Shown: piece by piece, positions 1-27,617 of the stretch
Layout of the letters: each line of letters opens with the position of its first letter
Position numbering within the stretch: position 1 is the stretch's first letter
Virus record (IMG/VR): IMGVR_UViG_2541047892_000001
Strand: one strand, 5' to 3'
Length of the DNA stretch: 35,657 bases
From: a virus
Taxonomy: Duplodnaviria; Heunggongvirae; Uroviricota; Caudoviricetes
Made by a program: the position numbers and the translations under genes
The notes under the pieces: generated by a model
The model's database searches: none
Told to the model about the DNA's origin: nothing
Seen by the model: the letters and a program-made list of their open reading frames with translations, nothing else

Positions 1-95
1 TTTTCTTCTGAAATGTACCCCAGGCTGGCAAAGGCTTATCCGACCAATAAATTACCGGATTTACGGGGCGAATTTATCCGTGGCTGGGATGACGG
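1..95. repeat. Inverted repeat arm (95 bp, perfect) paired with 1324..1418; truncated by window edge
   Basis: Reverse complement of 1..95 is identical to 1324..1418; first mismatch is at nt 96/1323. Confidence 0.85.
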
Positions 96-384
96 GCGAG
101 GGATTGATGCAGGACGTGCTTTATTGAGCTTTCAAACTGGGATGCTGGAAAAACACCGCCATATTGTTGTAGCTAACGATGGGTATGACACAAAGGATGA
201 ATGGGAGTTGGCCACAATTTTCAAAAAAACATATTCACAAGGCCGGGGACTTGATGCTGCAAATACAGGAGGGAGTTTGATTCCATCACCAACGCTTCAT
301 TCACGAGGAAGTATTGGTAACACTGGTGGTAGTGAAACTCGCCCCCGCAATATTGCATTTAACTATATCGTGAGGGCGGCTTAA
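1..384 (+). CDS. Alternative tail-fibre C-terminal segment, 5'-partial (frame open from window edge)
   Basis: Frame is open from nt 1; translation FSSEMYPRLAKAYPTNKLPDLRGEFIRGWDDGRGID... matches the internal sequence of the minus-strand tail fibre (1008..2003) then diverges, ending in the same TRPRNIAFNYIVRA motif. Confidence 0.6.
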   Translation, partial: FSSEMYPRLAKAYPTNKLPDLRGEFIRGWDDGRGIDAGRALLSFQTGMLEKHRHIVVANDGYDTKDEWELATIFKKTYSQGRGLDAANTGGSLIPSPTLHSRGSIGNTGGSETRPRNIAFNYIVRAA

Positions 385-390
385 TTATAC

Positions 391-1008
391 TCAACTGGCT
401 GCTGCCAGAGGCATTTCCGGCCAGTTGATATCCGGTGCAGTGCTGATGTCAGTCGCATTAAGCGCATCTATGAAATCAAGCACGGCGTTTAGTTTTTCCG
501 TCTCCTGGGGCGTCAATCGGCGTCCGGCTCGTAGTTTGAGATTAATAAGCTCAACAGATGCCATTGCCTGTTCCTCAAGTTGCTGACGATGCGCTCCGGC
601 AGCTTCCAGTTCTGCTGCGTGCTGTCGTCTCGTATCTGTCACCCAGGTCTCACCATCCCAGACATCATAGATGGTAGCTGGCTGTTTCACCGTCGTATCT
701 GAAGGGTAATCTCCCGGCTGTGTGATTTGCACAGCGTTACCATTCTCTGTGCTGTAAACCGTTTCGCCTCTGTGGTCTGGAACATATTTCCAGATGTTCT
801 GGTCGGTATCACGACAGACAGCGAAGCCGGGGCGTTTTTCTGGTGGCGCGTCAATGCATGAGTGAGCCGGAATTCCAACACCATAAGCGAGATATTCAAC
901 AGTGGCAGAGAGATATTCACGGTTTTCAGCATCGTAGTTATAAACGGTAATATCGCCTGCAGTTATAGCGATACCATTCTGATCAAGTACTGCAGCAGCA
1001 TTATTCAT
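391..1008 (-). CDS. Tail fibre assembly protein (Tfa / Mu U / P2 gpG-like)
   Basis: 205 aa; C-terminal region LTPQETEKLNAVLDFIDALNATDISTAPDINWPE is typical of tail fibre assembly chaperones; immediately downstream of the tail fibre on the same strand. Confidence 0.85.
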   Translation of the reverse strand: MNNAAAVLDQNGIAITAGDITVYNYDAENREYLSATVEYLAYGVGIPAHSCIDAPPEKRPGFAVCRDTDQNIWKYVPDHRGETVYSTENGNAVQITQPGDYPSDTTVKQPATIYDVWDGETWVTDTRRQHAAELEAAGAHRQQLEEQAMASVELINLKLRAGRRLTPQETEKLNAVLDFIDALNATDISTAPDINWPEMPLAAAS

Positions 1009-2003
1009 TAAGTAGCCCTTACAATATAGTTAAACGCAATATTACGGGGGCGGTTTTCCGTTCCTGTATTCCCTCCGTTGGCACCTAATCTATAAACACC
1101 ACGAGTGCCAATAGCACGTAGTGAAGATGGAACTTTTACACCTGACTCATCTGTTTTAACAATCCCGCCATCACCGTATGTAGCCAGTATACCAGGGTTT
1201 GTTCCTGCACGGGTGCTGTTTGCAGCAAGCCCTTCACCGGTCCATAACTCCATATAGTGAGTATGATCCATAACCGAATGTGGTTGTGCATTAAGCAAGA
1301 AACGCCCTGAATCAATTCCCCGTCCGTCATCCCAGCCACGGATAAATTCGCCCCGTAAATCCGGTAATTTATTGGTCGGATAAGCCTTTGCCAGCCTGGG
1401 GTACATTTCAGAAGAAAATGCTGCGCCGTTACATTTCAGCCACCCTGCTGGTGGTGTTGCTGAGGGCCACGGAACGGGCACACCAACGGGCAGTGCAGAG
1501 CCTTCCCCCAAACCAAGGTTTTTGACAAACAGCGCAGGATCAGGAATATCTGCGCCGTTCTGGTCTTTAGCCAGCTTTTCCGCCAGCTTGTTCAGTACCG
1601 TAGTCGCAAAGTTTGGATCATTACCGAGAGCGTCAGCCAGCTCTTTAAGCGTATCCAGTGTCTCAGGGGCGCTGCCTGCAAGCGCCGCAAGTGCTTTGGC
1701 CACAAACTCCGTCGTCGCCAGCTTTTTGCTGTTATCGCCATTTGCAGGTGTAGGTGCTGTTGGTGTGCCGGTGAATGCCGGACTGGCTTTCGGTGCATAC
1801 TGGGCATGCGGGTCTGCTGCCGCGATGTGTTTCGCAAGGTCAGCCCCGCCTTTTTCAACCTGTTGCTTCAGGTACAGCGTGCGGCTGGCCAGTTGTTTAC
1901 CCTGACGGTTAGAAATTCCGTCAGGCCCGCCCAGAACGGGGTCAGAGACCTCAATCTGGTAGATGCCGTCTTCCCACTGTGGGGTTTCAGGTAGATTTGC
2001 CAT
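1008..2003 (-). CDS. Tail fibre protein
   Basis: 331 aa; N-terminal MANLPETPQWEDGIYQIE...GKQLASRTLYLKQQV is a recognisable phage tail-fibre N-domain; followed by Tfa; contains the inverted-repeat arm. Confidence 0.85.
   Translation of the reverse strand: MANLPETPQWEDGIYQIEVSDPVLGGPDGISNRQGKQLASRTLYLKQQVEKGGADLAKHIAAADPHAQYAPKASPAFTGTPTAPTPANGDNSKKLATTEFVAKALAALAGSAPETLDTLKELADALGNDPNFATTVLNKLAEKLAKDQNGADIPDPALFVKNLGLGEGSALPVGVPVPWPSATPPAGWLKCNGAAFSSEMYPRLAKAYPTNKLPDLRGEFIRGWDDGRGIDSGRFLLNAQPHSVMDHTHYMELWTGEGLAANSTRAGTNPGILATYGDGGIVKTDESGVKVPSSLRAIGTRGVYRLGANGGNTGTENRPRNIAFNYIVRAT
1324..1418. repeat. Inverted repeat arm inside tail-fibre gene, partner of 1..95
   Basis: Direct comparison of the two strands; lies inside the 1008..2003 CDS at the point where the two fibre C-termini start to diverge. 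Confidence 0.85.
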
Positions 2004-2005
2004 AA

Positions 2006-2584
2006 TTAACTGCTCCCGTGGTTGTAACTACCGTCATAACGGGTAGTACTGTTGTATCGAATGGCGACAGACTGATATTCCAGGCTTGCCAGATGGCAGC
2101 GAGCCGGAGCAAAGGCAGCGAGCGTCTGACGTAACAGCGCTGCCTGATCATTAGTGATGGGCTGTTGAAGGATGACCCGATAGACTGCCCAGGCTTGTGC
2201 ATCGCCATGGACGAAAAGTCCGTTGTAACTGTGTTTACCGTCGTAGCCGATCTGCCCCGTACCTTCTATCAGCTCTACTTCGCCAAAGCCAAAACGGCGG
2301 ATAATTTCCCGGATTGACCACGGCGTTCCTTTATAGCGGTGTAGCTCGATAGCGGATTTGATAAGCATGCGGCGTACATCGTCCGATTCCGCCAGTTCCC
2401 AGCCATCGCCGAACAACGAGAACTGCTCGCCCAGCCATGGCAGCGCGGAACTGTCGACGATATCGACGAGACAGACCATCAGTACGCTCAGGTCGATGTT
2501 ATCCAGCCGTTCGGCCAGTCTTCCCAGCGTTTTGAGACTGATATCACCCTCAAGCGGTGGCGGTAGTCGTAGCGCCTCAGCCAT
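2006..2584 (-). CDS. Baseplate protein, P2 gpI / Mu gp48-like
   Basis: 192 aa; LPWLGEQFSLFGDGWELAE resembles the gpI family; sits between the J-like baseplate protein and the tail fibre. Confidence 0.65.
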   Translation of the reverse strand: MAEALRLPPPLEGDISLKTLGRLAERLDNIDLSVLMVCLVDIVDSSALPWLGEQFSLFGDGWELAESDDVRRMLIKSAIELHRYKGTPWSIREIIRRFGFGEVELIEGTGQIGYDGKHSYNGLFVHGDAQAWAVYRVILQQPITNDQAALLRQTLAAFAPARCHLASLEYQSVAIRYNSTTRYDGSYNHGSS

Positions 2585-3680
2585 CGGACACCCCTGTCAC
2601 GTTAAGAGTGATTGCCGTACAGTTTGCCCATTCGTTTTCTGCAACCACCCGCAGTGCCGGTGTCACCAGTTCAACCTGGTACACCCCGGAAACGGACAAT
2701 GCACTGATAATCTGGCTGGGGACAATATCGCGTCCCAGCGTGGCGGCACGTGATGCCACCCAGTTCTGTATGGCGCTGTTAGCGTTGTCCTTTACCGACA
2801 TTGCATCCTGATCACGATAGATCGTAATCCTGGCTTCAATGGTGTAATCCACCTGAACAGGTGTTTTAGCCCGCACGGTATCAGTGAGTGGTCTGACTTT
2901 TTCGTCAGAACAGAAACTCTCTACCAGAGTGAGGATACTGCTGTCTGGCAGACCAGTGCTGAGCAGTGGATACAGCTCGACAGTACCGGGAACGGGAGAA
3001 AGAACAGCGACGTCGACAATACTGGGATGCGCCCCCATGGCATGAAAACGGTATGCACCACGGCTTCCGGCATTGGTGAATGACTCCGGGGCCAGCCTGA
3101 TACGCTCCCGGAGTCGGTCATTGTCTTCCTGCTCTGAACCGCCAGTGCTGGCCGTCAGATTGGTCACCAGCAGGTCAACGTTATCAATCTCATCAAGCAG
3201 CTGACTGACCTGAGCCGGTTGCCAGCCGTTGCCAGAGGTACCCGGCTCAGTACAGGTGGCAGGGGCATTGACCAGTTGCAAACCGGCCTTCAGCACTACA
3301 TCTGTATCGGTGGCAAAAATCACGCTGTCGGAAGCGCTGACGCGGGTGCCTGCCGGGATCAGCACATCAATGGCCAGTGCCTCATCCACAGAGAACTGAA
3401 GTGTGGTGGTGGCAGGCTGCGCGGGAAGGCGGTATACACCAACCAGTTCTCCGAGGTAATCAATCATCGGCTCCCGGGAAAAGGCGACCAGATTCAGCTT
3501 CGCCGCCTCCTGTACCGCCACCCTGACCAGCATTTCGCGATAGGCCCACAGATCTATCAGCAGACGTTCTGCCTGTGCCGGGTACAACGTTTTGCCGGTA
3601 TCCGCTTCATATTTCGCAATCATTTCTGCCGTGATTTTATCGGCATCGAGTTCAATAAAATCGGGTTCTGTCAGCGCCAT
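2577..3680 (-). CDS. Baseplate J-like protein (P2 gpJ / Mu gp47)
   Basis: 367 aa; family-typical length and position downstream of the gpW-like protein. Confidence 0.85.
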   Translation of the reverse strand: MALTEPDFIELDADKITAEMIAKYEADTGKTLYPAQAERLLIDLWAYREMLVRVAVQEAAKLNLVAFSREPMIDYLGELVGVYRLPAQPATTTLQFSVDEALAIDVLIPAGTRVSASDSVIFATDTDVVLKAGLQLVNAPATCTEPGTSGNGWQPAQVSQLLDEIDNVDLLVTNLTASTGGSEQEDNDRLRERIRLAPESFTNAGSRGAYRFHAMGAHPSIVDVAVLSPVPGTVELYPLLSTGLPDSSILTLVESFCSDEKVRPLTDTVRAKTPVQVDYTIEARITIYRDQDAMSVKDNANSAIQNWVASRAATLGRDIVPSQIISALSVSGVYQVELVTPALRVVAENEWANCTAITLNVTGVSDG

Positions 3681-4018
3681 AGCAGTTCCTGAGTACGGGG
3701 TTGTCCGTCTGAGCCTTTCCAGCTCACCCGGAGCGTAAGATGTTCGCCGTCGACGGCGGGTTTAACCGACATAAGCTGGCAGCGGGGTTCCCAGCGCCTG
3801 ATGGCATCGACGGATTCGCGAACCACATGCGGAATGGCCCGGTCGACAGGCCAGTCGATATAAAGGTGCAGATTGCTGCCGAACTCTGGGCGATGCGGGT
3901 CGCTGCCGCGGGGAGTCCGCAGGATGATCTGGATGGACTGCTGGATATCATCCAGCCCCCGGACGATTTCGCCGGGAGCCTGCAGAGCCGGTTGCCAGAA
4001 TACTGAGGTCGTTTTCAT
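3671..4018 (-). CDS. Baseplate protein, gpW / gp25 lysozyme-like (Mu gp46)
   Basis: 115 aa; LDDIQQSIQIILRTPRGSDPHRPEFGS matches the GPW/gp25 family motif. Confidence 0.85.
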   Translation of the reverse strand: MKTTSVFWQPALQAPGEIVRGLDDIQQSIQIILRTPRGSDPHRPEFGSNLHLYIDWPVDRAIPHVVRESVDAIRRWEPRCQLMSVKPAVDGEHLTLRVSWKGSDGQPRTQELLWR

Positions 4019-4089
4019 GGGGGCAGTATTGCCCCAGTAAGAAAAGAACGATATTAAAGGGATTTAAAAAGGAGTTATTGATACGTTTG

Positions 4090-4965
4090 TTAAATTACGA
4101 AAACCTTGACGATAAGTTCTCCGTCTTTAGAGACTCTCTTCCCCTCAAGATCAGATTTCAGCCCCTCAGAATTAGTAATAAGCTGGTTCGGATCGTAGAT
4201 GACACACCAGAGATTTTTGCAATCAGAGTGCCGACGATAATGCTCTATATCGATAATAAGTTCATCGCCGATTTTCTTTGCATGAGAACGATCACGAACA
4301 ATTTTGGTTTCCAGTACTAATTTATGCGCAGGTAACAAAAAATCCATTCGAGTACTTGAACCAGCGTAACTTGGAGTAAACTCTTCTGGGCGGATGTCCT
4401 GAACCCATGGTCTGAGCAATGCATGGAGAAGGTCTTGCACGTCATATTCATTGCTAAAAGATAATGACTGGCTTCCTTTTCGCCTATGAGTAAGTGGATG
4501 CATTGCTCGCTGTAAGCCTTTGACCAGCCTTTCCAGTAAGTTCTCAACTTTTTCTGGCATTACTGGCTGTTGATAAGTAATTATGGTCTCTGGGTAATCC
4601 ATATTGTGTGACGGGATGTGGCCTTCAGGCAACACTCGACCAAAACGATAATATCTAAGTCCATTCTCTTGTAACACAGCTTCAATTCTGTCTCGTTTTT
4701 CCTTCCATTCTGCATATTCGGGAGTACCTTCTTTTGGAGGTAAATCCATAAACTCCTCAATTACTCCGCCCAGAACTGCCAGACTATCTGTATCTGGATC
4801 TTGCCCTGCAAGAAATAACCAGTCTTTCCATTTTGTACTATGAGATCCTGCCGGAGGGTTTCCTGGTGCTCCCGAAGTAAGAAATAACGTATCTAAAGCT
4901 GCATGAGAGCCTGAGTTAGCAATGACATCGCCAACTACTTTACATAAGGATCTTGATAACCGCAT
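4090..4965 (-). CDS. Accessory (moron) protein with predicted C-terminal PD-(D/E)xK nuclease fold; candidate defence gene
   Basis: 291 aa ORF in an AT-rich island between two conserved baseplate genes; C-terminal NEYDVQDLL...RMDFLLPAHKLVLETKIV fits the E...D...ExK pattern; GGGGA ribosome-binding site 5-9 nt upstream of ATG. Confidence 0.6.
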   Translation of the reverse strand: MRLSRSLCKVVGDVIANSGSHAALDTLFLTSGAPGNPPAGSHSTKWKDWLFLAGQDPDTDSLAVLGGVIEEFMDLPPKEGTPEYAEWKEKRDRIEAVLQENGLRYYRFGRVLPEGHIPSHNMDYPETIITYQQPVMPEKVENLLERLVKGLQRAMHPLTHRRKGSQSLSFSNEYDVQDLLHALLRPWVQDIRPEEFTPSYAGSSTRMDFLLPAHKLVLETKIVRDRSHAKKIGDELIIDIEHYRRHSDCKNLWCVIYDPNQLITNSEGLKSDLEGKRVSKDGELIVKVFVI

Positions 4966-5046
4966 TTAAGTCCCCGCCAAATTAGTGTTAATTAAAAAAT
5001 TCTATCATATCCGCGGGAGAGGAAATGGAGTCACATACTTGAAAAA

Positions 5047-5559
5047 TTAGTGAGAGTGATGATTGGAATTCTGTCCATCTGCAAATATGTTACCAGTCGC
5101 ATGGGTACTCCCTTTGATTTCAAGATTGCCGTTCACCATGATAGTGTCAGCTGTCAAATCAATGGTTTTCCCTTTCAGACTAATACCCACTGCAACCTCG
5201 ATCACCACATGCTCGATACCTCCTTTGACCGTCAGCGTATGGGTCGCGCGGTCATAACTGAACTCCGCGCCATCAGCGTACTTCGTGCCCCGGACGTTTT
5301 TATCACCGAACGGCGGTTTATCGACGTCTGAGTACACCGCGCCCAGAATAACACCATCCTCGCCGTTGGCATCGAGCAGCACCTCAACCTGCTCCCCCAC
5401 GTCAGGGAGCCAGTAATCCTTGTTATCCTGGGTATTGCGCTGCAGCACGTTAAGCCAGTTTGTGCGCAGATTATCGCATTCAGGCAGACGAACGCGGGCC
5501 TGAACCCTGTCGGCATCAACGGCACTGACCGTACCGACCTGGCGGGTGACACCAGTCAT
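5047..5559 (-). CDS. Baseplate spike / assembly protein V (P2 gpV / Mu gp45)
   Basis: 170 aa; sequence and position typical of gpV. Confidence 0.85.
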   Translation of the reverse strand: MTGVTRQVGTVSAVDADRVQARVRLPECDNLRTNWLNVLQRNTQDNKDYWLPDVGEQVEVLLDANGEDGVILGAVYSDVDKPPFGDKNVRGTKYADGAEFSYDRATHTLTVKGGIEHVVIEVAVGISLKGKTIDLTADTIMVNGNLEIKGSTHATGNIFADGQNSNHHSH

Positions 5560-6710
5560 TTTTTCTTCTCCTTAATCACCGTCGATGTACTGCCATCCGG
5601 GTGATAAACCGTGAGTTTCTGAGTTTTTTGTTTTTTCCCTCTTGTGACTGGCCCCCGTGCCACTTCCAGCTCTGTGGTGTAGCCGCTGTTACGCTCAAAC
5701 GCATGGCGGGCAGTGATTATCAGCCATGGACCGGATAATTGTCCAAAGCCCACCAGTTCAATTTTGTTGCCTGCTGTCAGTTGAGGCGTTCCCGTCAGCG
5801 TCAGGGAGCCGTTCTGCTGGTATTCGTTATGTCTGGCCAGTGCTGAATCCGCTTTAATCCGGGCACTGTCCGGGTCGCTGACGCGGCTGTTAACTTTAAG
5901 TGAGTCAGCGCTGGTAACCTTACCGCCTTTGAGCTTTTTGTCGCTTTCACGGGTACCACCATCAGCTTCGTAGACGATCAGTTTTTTACTGCTGCTTTTC
6001 TGGTGTTTTACCTTTGCAGATTTATAGACCCGGTTGATGGTGTCACGCAGGGAAAAGTGGGCCACATCCTGCGGTTTTAACTGCCTGACCGGCTCCTGAC
6101 TGCGCAATGTGGCCAGATGAGAAAAAATCAACTGGTCACTGACCACTTTCACTGCATAACCATACTCGCTGGCCAGCCGGCGCAGAAAACCCACGTCGGT
6201 TTCAGCATACTGGGTCACCCGGTCGATTCTGATGGACTCAATGCTGCCCACCAGTTTCAGCCGGTGCTTTCTGGCAATCCGACCCGCAACAGCTGCCAGC
6301 GTGGTGTTCTCAAAACCACGGCTGGATTTAGTCCGCAGAGCACTGTTAACCGAGGTGGCCACCCCACGGATAGCGACAACGGACGCGGGCGAACTCACTT
6401 CGATCTCGTCTATTGAGAATGTACCGTAGGACAGCAGTTTCTCGCCCTGATAACCCATTTTCAGCGTCAGCGTGTCACCCTTGCCCGGATACCACTTATC
6501 CAGCCAGCGGCCATCGGTGTCGTCCAGCTCCACCTCAATGGTATCGGACTCATTTTTGATGTTATCGCTCCAGACCACACGGGTGACATAAGGCGCGATA
6601 TCAGAGGTGATGTTTTTCTGCAAATACCACAGAGTGAATACCGGCGTCAGCACATCGCTGACGCCGGTTAACGCTGATGTGGCTTGCGCAGTACTGTTTA
6701 TCTCAGCCAT
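5556..6710 (-). CDS. Tail/baseplate hub protein, gpD-like (Mu gp44)
   Basis: 384 aa; late control gene D family features; stop/start overlap with neighbours. Confidence 0.75.
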   Translation of the reverse strand: MAEINSTAQATSALTGVSDVLTPVFTLWYLQKNITSDIAPYVTRVVWSDNIKNESDTIEVELDDTDGRWLDKWYPGKGDTLTLKMGYQGEKLLSYGTFSIDEIEVSSPASVVAIRGVATSVNSALRTKSSRGFENTTLAAVAGRIARKHRLKLVGSIESIRIDRVTQYAETDVGFLRRLASEYGYAVKVVSDQLIFSHLATLRSQEPVRQLKPQDVAHFSLRDTINRVYKSAKVKHQKSSSKKLIVYEADGGTRESDKKLKGGKVTSADSLKVNSRVSDPDSARIKADSALARHNEYQQNGSLTLTGTPQLTAGNKIELVGFGQLSGPWLIITARHAFERNSGYTTELEVARGPVTRGKKQKTQKLTVYHPDGSTSTVIKEKKK

Positions 6711-6910: not shown

Positions 6911-7794
6911 CACACACTCCTCGTCAGTATTCTGGCGACCATTGCACTTAATCCCGGAGACATGCGGTTGAATGCTGTGCCGGCGGCGTTAAGCTGCCCG
7001 GAAACGGTATCCAGAGCACCTGCAATATTTCTTTTGTCCACACCACTCAGCGCCGACTGCGCCTGCTGTACATACGTGGCTGCCTCACTGGCTGTTCTGG
7101 CCAGACTGATGGCATCGGGCATGGATTCAGAGAGTACATTAAACGCCGGAATACTTTTCCCCAGAGCGCCGGATATATTACCCAGTCCGCTCATCAGTCC
7201 CGGCACACGGGTCAGCGCGACAACGGGGTTACCCTTCATTTTCTGCGCCACCCGAACGGCACTGATGGTGGTCTGGAGTACAGACTGCGCCTGTTTCGCA
7301 TAGTTGACGCCGTTACGGACGAACTGCGCCACCCCGCAAGGCGATGGAACAGCACCAGATATGGCCCCGGCACCGGGAACCTGCCTGCGTATTGCCGGCG
7401 GTTGCAGAGGATTTTTCGGGTCACCGGTGTATTCCCGGAGAGACACGGTGGCACTGACAGCCAGCACGTTACCGGTGCTGTCTGTCTGCTCGCTGGTTGC
7501 GGTCACATCGGTAATCACGAACCAGCCGCGATAGTCACCGTTGCCGAAGACCAGCGCCAGTGCCTGATGGGCCTTCATGGCTGTTCGCACTCTCGCCAGC
7601 TCCACGTCGGGCACACAATAATGCTGATGGAAGACCAGGCTTATCTGGATTTCGTCCAGCCTGTCGCCGACGAACTGCAGGCCGGGTTTACCCTCGATGC
7701 GGGCATGCTCCGCATAATCGACGCCAAACGTGGCCTCGAAGCCGTCCCAGTAGGTAATCAGTTCAAACTCAATATCACCCAGTACGGCAAACAT
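6910..7794 (-). CDS. Tail protein, gpU / DNA-circularisation N-domain family (Mu gp43-like)
   Basis: 294 aa; N-terminal MFAVLGDIEFELITYWDG; directly downstream of the tape measure with ATGA overlap. Confidence 0.6.
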   Translation of the reverse strand: MFAVLGDIEFELITYWDGFEATFGVDYAEHARIEGKPGLQFVGDRLDEIQISLVFHQHYCVPDVELARVRTAMKAHQALALVFGNGDYRGWFVITDVTATSEQTDSTGNVLAVSATVSLREYTGDPKNPLQPPAIRRQVPGAGAISGAVPSPCGVAQFVRNGVNYAKQAQSVLQTTISAVRVAQKMKGNPVVALTRVPGLMSGLGNISGALGKSIPAFNVLSESMPDAISLARTASEAATYVQQAQSALSGVDKRNIAGALDTVSGQLNAAGTAFNRMSPGLSAMVARILTRSV

Positions 7795-10259
7795 CAGCTG
7801 TACTCCTTACGTTGTTTCTGAGCCAGCAGACGCTCCAGCATTTTTTCCAGCTCATGCAGGCTCATATTCAGGGCACCAGCCAGCCCGGCAGGCGCTGCGG
7901 TTTCCTTACCATTGAGGAAAAACTGAGGATTAAAGCTGACCTGGATACCGCCAGACGCTCCACCGCCGGTTGCAGTTGCGCCACGGCCTGAATATCCGGC
8001 AGCCATGATTTCCGGCGACGGGATACGGGGAACATCCGGTGTCATTTCAGCGGCCAGGCGCTGCCCGGCCAGTGCAGCAAGCGGAGTGGTCCGTTGCAGG
8101 CCAATGGCGGCACCCTGCGCGATATTGTCACCAAAGCCTATAAACACGCGACTCGGTGAATGGATGCCCAGCTTTTCGCTGAACCAGTCACTGATGCTGT
8201 CACCCATTCCGGTTATGCTGGTTTTCAGTGACGCCCATTTGTTTCTGATGCCATTTATCAGCCCGTCAATAAGATGACCACCGAAGTCGGTGAATTTCGC
8301 CGGCAAATCAACGCCGAGATATTTCAGCGCAGCCGCAAAGGCTTTATAAAGCAGACCTGCCGGAGACCAGTTAACCAGCAGTTTACCAATTCCCGCGATG
8401 CCGCCGTTAAAGGCTTCCTGAATGTCAGCCCAGCGCTGTTTAAACCAGCTACTGACAGCGCCCCAGTTGCGGTAGATAAGGTAAGCTGCTGCCGCGACGG
8501 CGGTGATAACGAGACCGATGGGATTCATCAGCAGCGCCCGGCCAATCCAGAGAACGGCACGCCCGGCGCTCATAATTCCGCGAACCAGCCCCCCTGAGAG
8601 CACACCCCCCAGTGTTCTGGTTCCTCTGGCGACGGCACCAAAGCCTGTCACCAGCCAGCGGAGTTTACCGCCTTCCCCCAGTGCGAGCATCAGACGAAGC
8701 CAGTTGGCCCGAAGTAAAACAGCATTTTTCCAGACGCTTACAAAGGGGGAAATAAGGAGATTCAGCCCAAACTTGAGACCGATAGTGGCCATCCTGAAAG
8801 CGAGTAATGCGCCCACAACCTTTATGGTGCTGCTGACGAGCTGCGGATTTGCCGCTATCCATTTGCCGACGCTGTCCATTAAAGGAATAAATGTTTCACC
8901 CAACTGGAGCAAAGCCGGACGCAAGGATTGCCCGATGCTGATAGCAGAATCATTAAAGCCGATCTGCATTCTGCGCCAGCGACCTTCAAGCGTATCATTC
9001 TGCTTTGCAGCATCCTTATCCAGGGTAGACATTGCAGCCGGAGCATTCATTTCCTGCTTACTGGAAAGGTATTTATCCCAGCCCTGTCGCATTGACAGTA
9101 AATGGTTGACAGTCTGAATATCGGTAAAGACCTCAGCCAGACCAAATGACTCCATGAGTTTCTGCTGACCTTCCTGATCGCCTCTTGCTCCTGCAGCTTT
9201 CCATTGCTGCAAAAACGCTTTGCCTTTACTGTCGATAAAACGGTTGGCAATCATCAGTGAAGCTTCGTACTGCGAAAAACCCTGAGCGACGTAATTCTGC
9301 ATTGACCCCTGGTAATCCACCCCGGCTTTAGCATATTTCTGGATGGTATCTCCGCGGCCCATTGCTGCCAGCCAGTTGGACATATTGGTGACCGCTTCCT
9401 CTGCAGAGCCACTACCTTTACCGACCTCCAGACTGGCAACAATCTGGGTAATCGCATCTTTTCCATAAATACCACGAGCAGCGAAGGCTTTCGCCATACC
9501 GGGTAATGCTTTTGCCATATCCTTCAGCTCAAATGACCCAAGTTTGGCTCCTGTTGCCGCAATGCCAAACGCCTGTTCAAGTTCTTTCGCATCAGTGATT
9601 CTGAGTGCATCGCTGAAGGCATAAGTCATTTTGGCAAGGTCGGTCATATCGGCTTTGGTTGCTGTAGCGGTCTTTCCAAGCATCTCTGCAAACGTTGCTG
9701 CCCGTTCGGGGGCCATACCATCAGCAACTAATTGTCCGACTCCCCCTAACAGAGACTCCTGCAGTTGGTTAACCTTCAGCGAGGCCTGTCTGATAGCCAG
9801 GCCAATTGCACGTTCCTGTTTTGCATCCAGGTCTCCTGTGACACTGATATCCCGCAACTGTGATTCAAACGAGGCATATTGTTTAACCGAGGCCATGACC
9901 GGTGCGCCCAGCGTTCTGCCAATAGCATAGGTTTCTGCACCCTGACCATAGAGCGCCAGGCGGTTAGCCTTCAACGCATCACCGGTGGCTGATACTGCTG
10001 ACAGACGGCGCTGCTGACGTTCAATTTGCTCCATGGTGCGGCTTACCCGCAGCAACTCGCTGTTGAGATGCTGCATCCGGGAAGAACCCAGTTGACCATA
10101 ACGTTCTGTTGCCCGGGTTAAGGCATTCTGGCGTTCCTGCAGACGGCGGGAGGTATCACCAAGGGAATCAAGGGCGCGTCGGGTGCCACTGACGGCTGAG
10201 CGGAAGCTGCTCCCGACAATGCCGCCAATAATGACGCCGACTGAAAATTCACTGGCCAC
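7794..10259 (-). CDS. Tail tape measure protein
   Basis: 821 aa, Ala/Gly-rich with coiled-coil N-part and hydrophobic central segments; GTG start preceded by GAGGA; position after the chaperone pair. Confidence 0.9.
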   Translation of the reverse strand: MASEFSVGVIIGGIVGSSFRSAVSGTRRALDSLGDTSRRLQERQNALTRATERYGQLGSSRMQHLNSELLRVSRTMEQIERQQRRLSAVSATGDALKANRLALYGQGAETYAIGRTLGAPVMASVKQYASFESQLRDISVTGDLDAKQERAIGLAIRQASLKVNQLQESLLGGVGQLVADGMAPERAATFAEMLGKTATATKADMTDLAKMTYAFSDALRITDAKELEQAFGIAATGAKLGSFELKDMAKALPGMAKAFAARGIYGKDAITQIVASLEVGKGSGSAEEAVTNMSNWLAAMGRGDTIQKYAKAGVDYQGSMQNYVAQGFSQYEASLMIANRFIDSKGKAFLQQWKAAGARGDQEGQQKLMESFGLAEVFTDIQTVNHLLSMRQGWDKYLSSKQEMNAPAAMSTLDKDAAKQNDTLEGRWRRMQIGFNDSAISIGQSLRPALLQLGETFIPLMDSVGKWIAANPQLVSSTIKVVGALLAFRMATIGLKFGLNLLISPFVSVWKNAVLLRANWLRLMLALGEGGKLRWLVTGFGAVARGTRTLGGVLSGGLVRGIMSAGRAVLWIGRALLMNPIGLVITAVAAAAYLIYRNWGAVSSWFKQRWADIQEAFNGGIAGIGKLLVNWSPAGLLYKAFAAALKYLGVDLPAKFTDFGGHLIDGLINGIRNKWASLKTSITGMGDSISDWFSEKLGIHSPSRVFIGFGDNIAQGAAIGLQRTTPLAALAGQRLAAEMTPDVPRIPSPEIMAAGYSGRGATATGGGASGGIQVSFNPQFFLNGKETAAPAGLAGALNMSLHELEKMLERLLAQKQRKEYS

Positions 10260-24270: not shown

Positions 24271-24594
24271 ATGACTGAACCGAAACAGTCTGGTATTAAA
24301 AAAGGGTTCCTCTTTGGGAGCAGAATCGGAGAGCAGAATAAAACTTACACGCTAAGCTTGGATGCATGTTGTCCAACCGAAGCGATTATAGAGCTGAAAA
24401 ACGTTCTGGTTGCACTTGAAGAGAGAAGAAGTCATTTCGCCAGCGGAGAAAACAACGTCATGCTAATTGGCGATGTGGCGGCGACATCACGATATAAAAC
24501 CGCACCTAATCCTGCGATTCAGTTATCCTTCGACCAACGAATACTGGAAGCGGAATCAGCAGTTCCCAGAACGGTTCGTCCTCACCAGTCTTAA
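24271..24594 (+). CDS. Hypothetical small protein (107 aa), divergent from the lysis operon
   Basis: ATG at 24271 preceded by GGGGAGG with 8-nt spacing; 3' end overlaps the convergent 191-aa gene by 89 nt, so one of the two may be miscalled. Confidence 0.3.
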   Translation: MTEPKQSGIKKGFLFGSRIGEQNKTYTLSLDACCPTEAIIELKNVLVALEERRSHFASGENNVMLIGDVAATSRYKTAPNPAIQLSFDQRILEAESAVPRTVRPHQS

Positions 24595-25081
24595 CTGGGG
24601 CTGCTTCACCCGACCAGTAAAGCCAAGCACGGTGATACAGTTCCAGCACCGGGCAATCACTGTTCAATAACCTCATATCTCCGCGATGCACCTGCTCATT
24701 TGTGATGACTTCATATATCGGTGCCGTTCTTATTTCGTCTTCGCCTCTCTCATCAGCCAGTAATTCCCTGAACTTCCTGACTTCACTCAGATGCTGACAG
24801 GCAAACAGTGACTGATAGCGGGAAGGTTTATCAGGAAAATGGCTACGGCGAACTAACTCAAACACCAGACCGACCAGCAGACTTCTGCTGATTCCACTGT
24901 CATCTTCCATTTTAGGGCCGGGGTTATAGAGATAGTTATACCCGTGACTCGAAAGGCCATTGGGATACATCTGATGAAGAAAAGCGGCCAGTTCTGGCAT
25001 TTCAGGCTCGTATTTTCCGGTAATTACATGACAAGGCGAAGGCAGACGACTAGCGGAATCAAGTGTGTAATACGTTCCCAT
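24506..25081 (-). CDS. Hypothetical accessory protein (191 aa), no recognisable family
   Basis: ORF in the accessory region between lysis genes and repressor; separated from the upstream cassette by a 409-nt non-coding gap. Confidence 0.5.
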   Translation of the reverse strand: MGTYYTLDSASRLPSPCHVITGKYEPEMPELAAFLHQMYPNGLSSHGYNYLYNPGPKMEDDSGISRSLLVGLVFELVRRSHFPDKPSRYQSLFACQHLSEVRKFRELLADERGEDEIRTAPIYEVITNEQVHRGDMRLLNSDCPVLELYHRAWLYWSGEAAPVKTGEDEPFWELLIPLPVFVGRRITESQD

Positions 25082-25196
25082 TCAGAAAACAATCCTTATC
25101 GAACAAACACTGCACGTAGGTAATGCATCCAGTAAATCGCGTTAATAGAAATCATGTATCTCAAAACTTCACTCTGAACTCTGACAGTGAAAGAAC

Positions 25197-25228
25197 GACC
25201 AGCCCGGTACCCGAACTCCGGGCTGGTC
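25197..25228 (-). terminator. Perfect 11-bp stem / 10-nt loop hairpin; possible terminator of the repressor-linked cassette
   Basis: GACCAGCCCGG-tacccgaact-CCGGGCTGGTC; on the minus strand it is followed by GUUCUUUCA, a weak U-tract. Confidence 0.35.
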
Positions 25229-25490
25229 ATCGCCCCACAGGAATGCACTGTGAGCCGACCGAGGTTCAGTCAGTCTCGCGAGACCAGACTAGCCTGCCAT
25301 ATTTTTTATAATTATAAAAGGGTTACAGATTATGAAAATGCAGACATTCCCCATCGCTCCATGGATTGGTTGTAAACGCCGCCATGCCAGACATATTCTG
25401 GCCGATGTTTCCTAGCACGCACGAATATGAGGCAACTGACGAGAATAAATGATGCGTCAGAATGAACCGTCGACACCGTGATTTCAGGTT

Positions 25491-26102
25491 TCAAAAATCT
25501 GGAGAAGGTATATCTATCTGACCGACGTTTCGTAACCACATCTCTTGCTTTGTTTCTTTATTGGTTCGGGCGATATCATTAGCATTGTATCTGCATGTTT
25601 TAACCGCAACCTCACGAACTCGTGCTATAGGAGTATTTGTGTAGAATTTAAGATCTTCCTCTACCGCTCGTATGGCGATAAGCCCTCCACTCTGAAAACC
25701 GCTGGTTACTTTTAAAAGATCAACTCCTTGGTTATAAACGGCATTACATACGTTAGGGAACTCATCTTCTACAGTTTTGGGGATCATCAGCATATCAGGA
25801 AGACCCTGTAACACGTTATCTTCCTTTGGCCTCCATGCCCTTCCCAAAAAAGCTGTTATAGGTTGTGGTGTAGAAAGAAATGCCAATTCTATATAAAACA
25901 AACCACTGTAGTGATCGCGTAACGAATAGACTAGTAAATGATCTTTTCCAGTTTTACTTGCATTGCTAAGTTTTATATCAAATGGTTTTTTCTGGTACTT
26001 AAGCAATCCATCAACTCCCGCATAATAATGCTTTGAAACAGCAACAGAAAGTTGATGTACTTGGTTCGGATAATCTGTTCTATATCGTTTAATTAGCCCC
26101 AT
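25491..26102 (-). CDS. Hypothetical accessory protein (203 aa), third gene of the repressor-linked cassette
   Basis: AT-rich (about 36-40% GC by eye); GAGG ribosome-binding site 6 nt upstream of ATG; 20 nt downstream of the 328-aa gene. Confidence 0.6.
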   Translation of the reverse strand: MGLIKRYRTDYPNQVHQLSVAVSKHYYAGVDGLLKYQKKPFDIKLSNASKTGKDHLLVYSLRDHYSGLFYIELAFLSTPQPITAFLGRAWRPKEDNVLQGLPDMLMIPKTVEDEFPNVCNAVYNQGVDLLKVTSGFQSGGLIAIRAVEEDLKFYTNTPIARVREVAVKTCRYNANDIARTNKETKQEMWLRNVGQIDIPSPDF

Positions 26103-26122
26103 AATAGCCTCGCAGTTATTTT

Positions 26123-27109
26123 CTATTTCAAAATATAACGATATTTACTATCTGGAGTGTTTTGTTGGTCAAGTAATAGAGCTCTACATGGGGCGGTCAA
26201 AACACGGGCATAACGACCATCGGGGTTTATGTTGATGTAACAAGTTTTCCCTTTAACACCATAAGATTCAGGTATTATTGCCTGTGTAGACACCGTGAAT
26301 TTAAGGGTATGCCAGCCCGATTTTTGCTTGTAGCTTGAAACCGAATGGAAATCATCTGAGTACTTATTTAACCCTGGAAACATGCTGCGTAATGCTGGGA
26401 TGGAATCTTCTATTATTTTGTCGTTGGTTTTAATGTTAAAAACGCTGGTTTCAGTAGATGCTACTGCTTTAGCATTTCCCCATTTACCAGCGAACACAAT
26501 CATTCCCACGAAAAATATTGCGACAAGAACTAACGCTCCCCCCAACACTACTACATGAGGCTTCCGGCTTCTGGTTGGTACAGTCGCGACTGATTTTGCC
26601 CCGCTGTCCGATGGAGGTGATAGAGTTTTACTCTCATCACGAATATTCAGCAGATCATCAAAATAACCAAACACAGCCTGCAACTGCTCTTTGTCCAGGC
26701 CTTTAAGATGGGTTGTACCGAAATGCTTCAGACAGTATCTGTCACGGTCAAGACGATACCTAGGGTCAGTAAGCACCATTATTTTGCTGACCAGAAGATT
26801 ACAGTCCTTCATATTCTGGATCTGTTGTGCATATCTCTGGAGGATCTCAACCGCACCATGATAATCAGCCGCAGTCATTTCATTAACTGTTTTGGTATTA
26901 AGTTTCGTGTGGATCGTCATCCATAGTTCGCGCTTACTTTCCCCCAGATCAACCAATTCATCCATCAATCTGTGTAAATCGCGTTTTTGCAGCAACGAAA
27001 TTGGTTGCTGGGCAGAGGGAAGTATGTCAGCAGAATAGTTATGAATGGTAACATCACCGCTGACAACGTTACCCACATCTCCGTTAACTGTTTGCTTCTC
27101 TTTACTCAT
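26123..27109 (-). CDS. Hypothetical bitopic membrane protein (328 aa): N-terminal Gly-rich motif, about 190-aa cytoplasmic domain, one TM, about 110-aa C-terminal domain
   Basis: TM helix HVVVLGGALVLVAIFFVGMIVFAG; start codon overlaps the repressor stop (ATGA); AT-rich. Confidence 0.65.
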   Translation of the reverse strand: MSKEKQTVNGDVGNVVSGDVTIHNYSADILPSAQQPISLLQKRDLHRLMDELVDLGESKRELWMTIHTKLNTKTVNEMTAADYHGAVEILQRYAQQIQNMKDCNLLVSKIMVLTDPRYRLDRDRYCLKHFGTTHLKGLDKEQLQAVFGYFDDLLNIRDESKTLSPPSDSGAKSVATVPTRSRKPHVVVLGGALVLVAIFFVGMIVFAGKWGNAKAVASTETSVFNIKTNDKIIEDSIPALRSMFPGLNKYSDDFHSVSSYKQKSGWHTLKFTVSTQAIIPESYGVKGKTCYININPDGRYARVLTAPCRALLLDQQNTPDSKYRYILK

Positions 27110-27567
27110 TTTCTCTTTGTATTTTTGTTCATTATTCCACCTGTTCCTATGGTTACGTTACCTTTGATAACATTCCCCAGAACATCTCCATGAATAACCT
27201 GTTCCGCCCGTTCTCTGGAGGAGCCAGTCGTCAATGCCGACAAAACTGAACCTTTGACTTGTAACGGTGCTTGCCGGTAGTGCTGAAGTAACTCCATTTC
27301 ATCACGTGATAAAGTTATACCTGATGATTCCCCAGTAAGAATGAACTGTACGTTGGCCCCAATTCTTGCAAAGGCTGCAAGTAACTCACCTCCGGGAACT
27401 GCAACCCCTCGTTCATATTTCCCCCACATTTCTCTTGAAACGCCACAAAGGGCTGCTACTTCAGCCTGCTTGAGTGATAACCGCGAACGCTCAGCTTTGA
27501 ACCGCGACGCGCAAAGAGAATCAAAATTCACATAAACCTCATTGACAATGAGAACAATGGTTCTCAT
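27106..27567 (-). CDS. XRE-family HTH transcriptional repressor (putative prophage repressor)
   Basis: HTH_XRE signature LKQAEVAALCGVSREMWGKYERG; divergent from the early operon; alternative GTG start at 27531 with a GAGG site would leave the operator and early promoter outside the coding region. Confidence 0.8.
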   Translation of the reverse strand: MRTIVLIVNEVYVNFDSLCASRFKAERSRLSLKQAEVAALCGVSREMWGKYERGVAVPGGELLAAFARIGANVQFILTGESSGITLSRDEMELLQHYRQAPLQVKGSVLSALTTGSSRERAEQVIHGDVLGNVIKGNVTIGTGGIMNKNTKRK

Positions 27568-27570
27568 AAT
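27542..27570 (+). promoter_or_regulatory. Early promoter: -35 TTGACA, 17-bp spacer, -10 CATAAT, with an operator-like inverted repeat in the spacer
   Basis: TTGACA at 27542..27547 and CATAAT at 27565..27570; spacer contains ATGAGAAC-aatg-GTTCTCAT (27548..27567); 48 nt upstream of the first early gene. Confidence 0.55.
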
Positions 27571-27617
27571 CTATCACATATAAAACAAACATCATTGCAT
27601 CAACAAAGGAGACAACA

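Follow-up and report, generated by a model that had tools for sequence, protein, structure and literature searches.

Introduction

Lactococcus AbiJ (Abi_C, PF14355; AbiJ in PADLOC) is an abortive infection (Abi) factor that is encoded by a single gene of about 280 amino acids (aa) and has a two-part layout; its mechanism is itself unknown (PMC13064643). A class of proteins described as 'Abi-NTD + toxin domain' has been predicted by Anantharaman et al. (2013), who proposed that the N-terminal domain (NTD) recognizes a component of the virus and keeps the toxin in check at other times (PMC3710099). A different type of effector is found in the long-B Argonaute system BPAN, in which bAgaN, represented by EcbAgaN (PDB 23wq), is the nuclease effector. 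Mutation of EcbAgaN D298/E309/K311 abolishes its non-specific DNase activity and the degradation of genomic DNA (PMC10620215), and it has further been reported that the isolated C-terminal domain is toxic, that the N-terminal domain autoinhibits it and that the protein is active only as an oligomer (PMC13535254). In addition, the nuclease domain PF18742 takes the place of the PNP effector in some Detocs operons. In this study, we analysed the IMG/VR virus record IMGVR_UViG_2541047892_000001, a stretch of 35,657 nt that is referred to below, at its full length of 35.6 kb, as the window and that carries, on the minus strand, the late (tail) genes of an Escherichia coli prophage of the Mu-like transposable type. 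An open reading frame (ORF) of 291 aa between the gpV-like and gpW-like baseplate genes of this prophage had been picked out, in an earlier reading of the DNA letters (the sequence-only reading), as a candidate single-gene defence or abortive infection factor with a PD-(D/E)xK nuclease. We suggest here that it is probably a single-polypeptide abortive infection or defence nuclease with the same two-part layout as AbiJ, located in a self-contained, mobile one-gene cassette that is carried by the prophage as a moron.

Results

The C-terminal part of the 291-aa protein is a nuclease domain of the restriction endonuclease (REase) type. It matched PF18742 (REase_DpnII-MboI) over aa 143-286, corresponding to profile positions 2-147 of 150, with 160 bits compared with a cut-off of 27 (E=4e-47), and this core was the only match in a Pfam scan of the protein at E<=0.1. 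The motifs NEYDVQDLL, RMDFLL and LVLETK, on which the prediction of an E...D...ExK nuclease had been based, are present and the catalytic residues are intact, with E173, D208, E219 and K221 invariant across 45 homologues. A structure prediction and a Foldseek search had been proposed in the sequence-only reading as a check on the nuclease fold; the alpha/beta restriction-endonuclease core was indeed recovered for the C-terminal domain, but Foldseek found nothing below E=0.1 when the full model was compared with the PDB. The only solved structure that is related in sequence is that of EcbAgaN (phmmer E=2e-5, chain residues 230-344), which is also the closest characterized homologue of the C-terminal domain. 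The D-ExK residues of the two proteins align (Table 1), and both are composed of an N-terminal domain, a flexible linker and a nuclease. However, the N-terminal helical domain of bAgaN is unrelated to that of the window protein and the alignments are confined to the nuclease part. In the same way, the only PADLOC match was to the REase part of the Argonaute-associated model Aga_Helical-REase (E=1.8e-30), with alignments at model positions 224-362, 212-338 and 270-360 only. By homology with EcbAgaN, the C-terminal domain is predicted to be a non-specific DNase. No Argonaute gene is annotated in the identical prophage stretch in RefSeq, which covers the late genes, or in the other contexts in which the gene was found, and the early region of the window has no ORF longer than 589 aa. 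As there is no Argonaute gene nearby, the activator of the window protein must differ from a guide-loaded prokaryotic Argonaute (pAgo). The 291-aa protein also matched PHROG 29450, the function of which is unassigned, and did not match any NCBIfam model.

The nuclease domain is also found without the N-terminal domain of the window protein. A match confined to the nuclease part was obtained in 319 plasmid records, most of which are from conjugative plasmids of Klebsiella and E. coli, and PF18742-like plasmid proteins of 263 aa (WP_052921319.1, IncX1) are 48% identical in this domain (E=6e-39). In the one record examined, the 263-aa protein of IncX1 plasmid pE1-TEM (locus L109, 2686..3477) has an unrelated N-terminal half, and its gene adjoins one annotated as 'Abi family protein'. 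PF18742-like genes are widespread on conjugative plasmids and are often annotated as 'malate dehydrogenase'.

It had been stated previously that the N-terminal 150 aa belong to no recognizable family. This is still the case with regard to Pfam, NCBIfam and PADLOC, none of which has a model covering aa 1-142; however, an exhaustive phmmer search with these residues retrieved 324 representative relatives and defined aa 1-115 as a conserved domain. Mean identity across the family is 72% in the N-terminal domain and 80% in the C-terminal domain, compared with 23% in the linker that separates them. Among the residues of the N-terminal domain, H21, W49 and Y105 are invariant. In the 40 longer relatives the N-terminal domain is always located directly upstream of an effector, and the effector is exchanged in a modular fashion, being Abi_C/HEPN in 22 proteins, TIR_2 in four, a CAP12/Pycsar TIR in two, PNP_UDP_1 in three and PF18742 in three. 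An extra domain, either AbiJ_NTD3 or a part resembling the substrate-binding domain of Hsp70, sometimes precedes it, and the position of the N-terminal domain downstream of AbiJ_NTD3 in one relative indicates that it is a distinct module. PADLOC recognized AbiJ in five of the ten N-terminal domain relatives that were scanned, these being HEPN versions, while the TIR and PNP versions matched CBASS/Pycsar-type effector models. A protein consisting of the N-terminal domain and Abi_C is also encoded beside the integrase of a P2-like E. coli phage (32% identity over aa 2-111, E=2e-12). Judged by these sequence relationships, the N-terminal domain is a shuffled Abi-type module and not an orphan sequence.

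The likeness to AbiJ is based on the AbiJ-family relatives, that is on homology with the domain preceding Abi_C/HEPN in 22 of the 40 longer proteins, several of which are AbiJ according to PADLOC, and not on the N-terminus of Lactococcus AbiJ itself. The window protein differs from AbiJ in that its effector is a PD-(D/E)xK domain and not an HEPN RNase; neither Abi_C nor the PADLOC AbiJ model matched it, and its N-terminal domain did not match any Pfam AbiJ_NTD model. By its description in the 2013 paper, AbiJ-NTD5 (about 115 aa, helical, fused to AbiJ and TIR, with an E. coli representative) resembles this domain and is a possible counterpart of it.

The N-terminal domain is predicted to form five helices and a beta-hairpin and may have a death-like fold. 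However, canonical death-like domains are six-helix bundles, and the resemblance scores to death folds were modest. A profile of 31 diverse N-terminal domains matched no chain in the PDB, death-fold entries included, except for one spurious match (E=1.6). Death-like and EAD adaptors occur as a rule in pairs. When a profile built from 151 diverse sequences was run at E<=10 against the six-frame ORFs of the window and of the context loci L001-L110 (0.93 Mb, 5-6 kb around the gene), a single copy was found per locus and no second one. Based on the modest scores, the lack of profile support and the lack of pairing, we regard the resemblance as a structural lead only and not as membership of the death-fold group. 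The protein likewise differs from bacterial CARD or death-like effectors, such as the gasdermin-type CARD-protease and bDLD/EAD proteins, to which it has no profile link and with which it shares neither a paired copy nor an NLR/STAND partner.

The 291-aa ORF is real and starts with ATG, and it carries the same annotation in RefSeq E. coli genomes that contain an identical stretch. Alignment with related prophages lacking the insert, which had been suggested as a further check, was carried out with blastn and with the empty sites of E. coli 12089, phage KP12 and phage PhiKM. This corrected the extent of the insert, which had been given as 4019..5046: the 54 nt adjoining the gpW start are the native gpV-gpW spacer, and the true insert of 974 bp begins directly after the gpV stop codon (Table 1). 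The lower GC content noted before is borne out by values of 0.417 for the insert versus 0.538 for the window and, at third codon positions (GC3), of 0.34 for the ORF versus 0.58-0.68 for gpD, gpV, gpW, gpJ and gpI. A GC content this low was seen in 2.5% of segments of the same size, all of which fall in this insert or in one other region.

The two flanking genes are normally adjacent, as had been assumed. Among 77 related IMG/VR contigs with close gpV and gpW, 74 have an insert-free junction of 50-100 nt, one has a gap of 163 nt with a diverged gpV end, and the remaining two have a long insert that in both contains the same nuclease gene, in one of them with an insertion sequence (IS) inside the gene. 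The possibility that the gpV/gpW junction is a general hotspot for cargo was rejected, since 74 of the 77 contigs are empty and the sole cargo is this gene, which makes it a specific and rare one. The full stretch was found in 16 of 637 complete E. coli genomes having the flanks, so that the gene is present in approximately 2.5% of related prophages and missing from about 97% of sister prophages; in all, it was detected in 22 of 5,426 complete E. coli genomes. The insert is thus foreign and sporadic, as the sequence-only reading had proposed, and is not a conserved structural gene of these phages.

Of 18 near-identical prophage-borne E. coli copies, seven are interrupted by IS elements, which indicates that the nuclease gene is dispensable for the phage. 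In several enterotoxigenic E. coli (ETEC) genomes, an insertion of about 1.3 kb, annotated as IS2 in strain B7A, is located after codon 238/239 of the gene. Interrupted copies are present in E. coli B7A, TW10573, ATCC 43896, 503025, 503440, 504211 and 503829 (locus L022, 5001..7209), and a second element, IS100, is also found in some of them. The disrupted strains may be clonally related and the number of events hence small.

The same gpV/gpW junctions are occupied in diverged Mu-like prophages of Yersinia and Pectobacterium, and the right junction is identical in the Yersinia, L025 and Pectobacterium copies. The chromosome of Pectobacterium colocasium CSR2 contains three diverged Mu-like prophage copies, each with the nuclease gene at gpV/gpW, and the element has evidently transposed or multiplied within this genome. 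At the window locus, the last ~180 nt of gpV (about 60 codons, 5047-5226) are 65-80% identical and the spacer is 79% identical to the closest empty prophage, compared with 97-100% elsewhere. This local drop in identity places the insert at a mosaic boundary. The length of gpV varies among relatives (170, 175, 198 and 200 aa). Neither terminal inverted repeats nor a target duplication were found flanking the insert. Many homologues are named 'transposase' by NCBI; a transposon reading was nevertheless rejected, as there are no terminal repeats, no target duplication and no transposase domain, and no transposase family was found in the Pfam and NCBIfam scans of the 291-aa protein.

With regard to expression, the gene has its own ribosome-binding site, as stated earlier, in the form of a GGGGA sequence just upstream of the start codon. 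The extended -10 element that had been suggested upstream of it is present as a string, TGATAGAAT; its position is also kept in the Yersinia copy of the gene, and a perfect TGATATAAT is found at the equivalent position in a satellite-borne E. coli copy. However, a standard promoter scan called neither this site nor a -35 element, and the promoter is therefore best described as a possible one, a candidate match to the consensus. No intrinsic terminator was found in or beside the insert, or between gpV, the insert and gpW.

Full-length homologues of the 291-aa protein number in the thousands, with 67-91% identity in Enterobacterales, Pseudomonas and Burkholderiales and 51-78% across Acidobacteriota, Planctomycetota, Verrucomicrobiota, Cyanobacteria, Chloroflexota and Myxococcota. 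Most family members are located outside phages, in chromosomal islands and on plasmids, and no full-length homologue was found among 50,697 sequenced phage records. The gene is associated with defence islands and mobile elements. It is present in a satellite-like element in E. coli (integrase, AlpA, Rep), in islands and at sites associated with integrative and conjugative elements (ICEs) in Pseudomonas aeruginosa, in a P1-like element, on two plasmids and in a lambda-like phage (L026), where it lies between the portal and terminase genes beside a Schlafen-domain gene. Furthermore, it adjoins Shedu SduA in Permianibacter, genes for a TIR protein and a DUF4365-TPR protein in Salmonella, YobI-ATPase in Enterobacter, and a type I restriction-modification (R-M) system and a reverse transcriptase in Alishewanella. 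Apart from this unrelated type I R-M system, no methyltransferase gene was found next to it in the window or in the annotated contexts. In 78 species-level loci, no ORF within 4 kb on either side was found in more than one genome. The lack of a conserved partner supports the earlier view of a single-gene system, and it is in keeping with the one copy of the N-terminal domain per locus.

Small genes downstream of the homologues were considered as a conserved partner and rejected, since the ~100-aa genes in Pseudomonas, Pantoea and L026 are mutually unrelated. In Pantoea (L011, 7130..7429) and in the P1-like element (L023, 5923..6222), the homologue is followed by a 99-aa 'beta-flower' protein (PF21784) that contains a collagen-like GNPGN repeat; these two copies are 92% identical, and the protein is absent from the window and the other contexts. 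In P. aeruginosa, the REase gene is part of a fixed four-gene block, in which it is preceded by genes for a 234-aa protein without known function and a 483-aa trypsin-like protease and followed by one for a 104-aa protein, also without known function (L007/L009/L010, 3516..7304). The block was found at three or more distinct chromosomal or ICE locations, and the protease has weak matches to RT-Protease in PADLOC. The idea that the N-terminal domain has a CARD-like fold in common with the Pseudomonas protease or with the 234-aa protein beside it was rejected, as no sequence similarity was found. Homologues with 63-64% identity over the full length were also found on contigs of 2-3 kb in metagenome-assembled genomes (MAGs) of Nanoarchaeota and Methanobacteriota (L138, L139), which could be due to a real transfer or to a binning error.

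The gene order of the late region is tape measure, gp43-like, tail protein X, gpD-like, gpV-like, the 291-aa ORF, gpW/gp25, gpJ, gpI and tail fibres. Two further regions of the window can be mentioned. At its left edge, a 123-aa ORF (13..384, plus strand) repeats the C-terminal part of the tail-fibre ORF (1008..2003, minus strand; MYPRLAKAYPTNKLPDLRGEFIRGWDDGRGI...RPRNIAFNYIVRA), and a 'recombinase family protein' is encoded just beyond it in the identical RefSeq prophage. This arrangement looks like an invertible host-range switch of the Mu G-segment type. A second region of low GC content (approximately 24500..27600, minus strand; minimum 0.39) separates the lysis genes from the early region and encodes a DUF2441 protein (24506-25081), two ORFs without a family at 25491-26102 and 26123-27109, and also an HTH_31/HTH_3 repressor-like ORF (27106-27567); PADLOC found only weak HTH matches, and the region may represent further accessory cargo.

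Table 1. Coordinates of the features discussed in this study (positions in the window)
Feature	Position	Strand	Remarks
974-bp low-GC insert (moron cassette)	4073..5046	.	blastn and alignment with three empty sites
291-aa ORF, ATG start	4090..4965	-	RefSeq WP_001371051.1, 'PD-(D/E)XK nuclease domain-containing protein'
N-terminal domain, aa 1-115, predicted sensor/regulatory (autoinhibitory) module	4621..4965	-	five helices and beta-hairpin
Variable linker, aa 116-135, predicted disordered	4561..4620	-	mean identity 23%; predicted local distance difference test (pLDDT) score <50
C-terminal PF18742 REase_DpnII-MboI (PD-(D/E)xK) nuclease domain, aa 136-291	4093..4560	-	
E173 codon, first acidic residue of NEYD motif	4447..4449	-	invariant; aligns with EcbAgaN E263
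D208 codon, D of PD	4342..4344	-	invariant; aligns with catalytic EcbAgaN D298
E219-T220-K221 codons (ExK)	4303..4311	-	E and K invariant; align with EcbAgaN E309-V310-K311
Shine-Dalgarno-like GGGGA	4971..4975	-	5 nt upstream of ATG of 291-aa ORF
Possible extended -10 element TGATAGAAT	4999..5007	-	string match to consensus
Tape measure	7794-10259	-	late-region gene order
gpD-like hub	5556-6710	-	
gpV-like baseplate spike (upstream flank)	5047..5559	-	Pfam Phage_base_V
gpW/gp25-like baseplate wedge (downstream flank)	3671..4018	-	Pfam GPW_gp25, PHROG 43
gpJ	2577-3680	-	late-region gene order

Discussion

In this study, we revisited a 291-aa ORF in the tail gene cluster of a Mu-like prophage and compared its product with known single-protein and multi-protein defence systems. 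Its relatives and its neighbours are typical of defence and abortive infection, which supports the interpretation as a candidate defence factor that had been put forward at the outset, and a defence activity of the protein would be consistent with what can be read from these sequences. None of the observations listed at that stage as refuting it (a model without a nuclease fold, homologues that are conserved parts of the virion, or an insert found in every related phage as a structural gene) was made. If this is the case, one might envisage that in the lysogen a low level of protein would be produced from its own promoter and/or by read-through, and that the N-terminal domain would keep the nuclease inactive. 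An infection-associated cue would then act on the N-terminal domain and relieve the inhibition, probably together with self-association of the protein, and the nuclease would degrade phage and host DNA in a non-specific manner, with the result that the infection is aborted. With regard to the N-terminal domain, it is conceivable, although we think it unlikely, that this module, which a large part of the AbiJ family shares, is a divergent death-fold of the CARD/DD-like type, which would polymerize with itself on receiving the cue in the manner of inflammasome adaptors, without an NLR or a protease, and would activate the tethered effector (the DNase in this protein and HEPN, TIR or PNP in its relatives) by induced proximity.

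Several observations weigh against the proposal of a defence nuclease. Confidence in the AlphaFold2 (AF2) model is incomplete for the nuclease core, with pLDDT values below 50 at aa 159-172 and 192-205. PADLOC did not match the whole protein to any system, just as the sequence-only reading had not been able to place it in a named defence family, and we found no study of the 291-aa protein or of any full-length homologue in the literature. The family is also unusually conserved for a putative phage sensor, and an identity of 51-78% across phyla is difficult to square with an arms race in which the phage proteins vary. In addition, the extended -10 pattern occurs in the window at chance frequency (15 matches with up to one mismatch versus 15.9 expected), and the nuclease gene has the sense orientation within the late tail operon, with no terminator, so that it may be expressed mainly during lytic growth. 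Such an expression may suit a function that benefits the phage equally well.

According to this alternative, the protein is a lytic-cycle nuclease, which is co-transcribed with the tail genes and degrades host or competitor DNA for nucleotide scavenging, superinfection exclusion or anti-plasmid activity, without abortive killing of the host. The location of a homologue within a structural operon in an unrelated phage (L026) would agree with this idea, as would the shared orientation and the uninterrupted run from gpV through the insert to gpW. However, most family members are non-phage genes in islands and on plasmids, full-length homologues are missing from the sequenced phage records and nearly all sister prophages manage without the gene; moreover, the N-terminal domain is also fused to HEPN, TIR and PNP domains, which are suicide effectors. 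We therefore consider a lytic-cycle function to be quite unlikely.

The resemblance of the N-terminal domain to death folds would fit yet another model, in which the protein serves as the effector arm in a multi-gene system with dispersed components and the N-terminal domain is a death-fold/EAD homotypic adaptor that docks onto a sensor (an NTPase or protease) with the same domain encoded elsewhere in the host genome. This is quite improbable in view of the fact that no second copy of the domain was found across the 35.6 kb of the prophage or over 5-6 kb at the context loci, and that none of the 150 best relatives of the N-terminal domain is longer than 648 aa or has an NTPase. No neighbour recurs across the 78 loci, the Pseudomonas protease and the 234-aa neighbour share no sequence with the domain, and the N-terminal domain profile has no link to any solved structure, including those with a death fold.

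The precise intergenic location of the insert between two conserved genes and its sporadic distribution are reminiscent of free-standing homing endonucleases or other selfish nucleases, which would spread by cutting insert-free gpV/gpW junctions. The occupation of the same junctions in Mu-like prophages as diverged as those of E. coli, Yersinia and Pectobacterium would be explained in this way, and the locally diverged flanks could be the result of co-conversion; however, the C-terminus of gpV varies in length and sequence among relatives generally. Homing is very unlikely, since no recognized DNA-targeting domain is present, the N-terminal domain is shared with RNase, NADase and nucleosidase effectors, which cannot home, and homologues with 61-91% identity are found at many unrelated sites, which would not readily be expected if the target site were conserved.

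Since the homologous nuclease domain is toxic in isolation and the gene is always located on mobile elements or islands, the protein could also be an addiction toxin that stabilizes its mobile element by post-segregational killing. This is most unlikely, as the 974-bp insert, with 81 nt before and 17 nt after the ORF, leaves no space for an antitoxin and has no repeats suggestive of an RNA antitoxin, and IS-disrupted copies of the gene persist in prophages that are otherwise retained. The least likely of all is an orphan type II enzyme with the specificity of DpnII/MboI, which would cut unmethylated GATC and not need a cognate methylase in E. coli, a Dam-positive host that would be protected: the REase-fold core falls in the Pfam clade named after DpnII/MboI, but only this core of 150 profile positions was matched, a methyltransferase partner is lacking here as well as beside full-length homologues in Pseudomonas, Burkholderiales, Acidobacteriota, Planctomycetota and Myxococcota, most of which lineages are not known to have Dam or GATC methylation, the closest characterized relative EcbAgaN is non-specific, and the insert itself contains six GATC sites.

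While the points raised above should be kept in mind, the findings are in better agreement with the proposed single-polypeptide defence nuclease with an AbiJ-like layout. RefSeq already gives a domain annotation for the protein, and its architectural class had been foreseen in the 2013 paper, but we found no named system or paper that covers it, and it can therefore be viewed as an uncharacterized effector variant of the AbiJ-type class of single proteins. If active, it would be a very compact anti-phage module, consisting of one gene for 291 aa with no methylase and no partner, and it would represent a new effector variant of a class the mechanism of which has been unknown for some 30 years. 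The family is exceptionally conserved and its N-terminal domain drives at least four effector chemistries, and identification of the cue that it senses would for this reason explain many systems. Should it prove to be a death fold after all, the combination of a death fold and an effector in a single polypeptide would count among the minimal immune modules with the widest distribution, found on phages, satellites and plasmids in more than ten phyla, and would account for the way in which AbiJ works. Lastly, the locus would show that defence cargo can be located inside the late tail operon of Mu-like phages, far from the usual hotspots at the ends of prophages.

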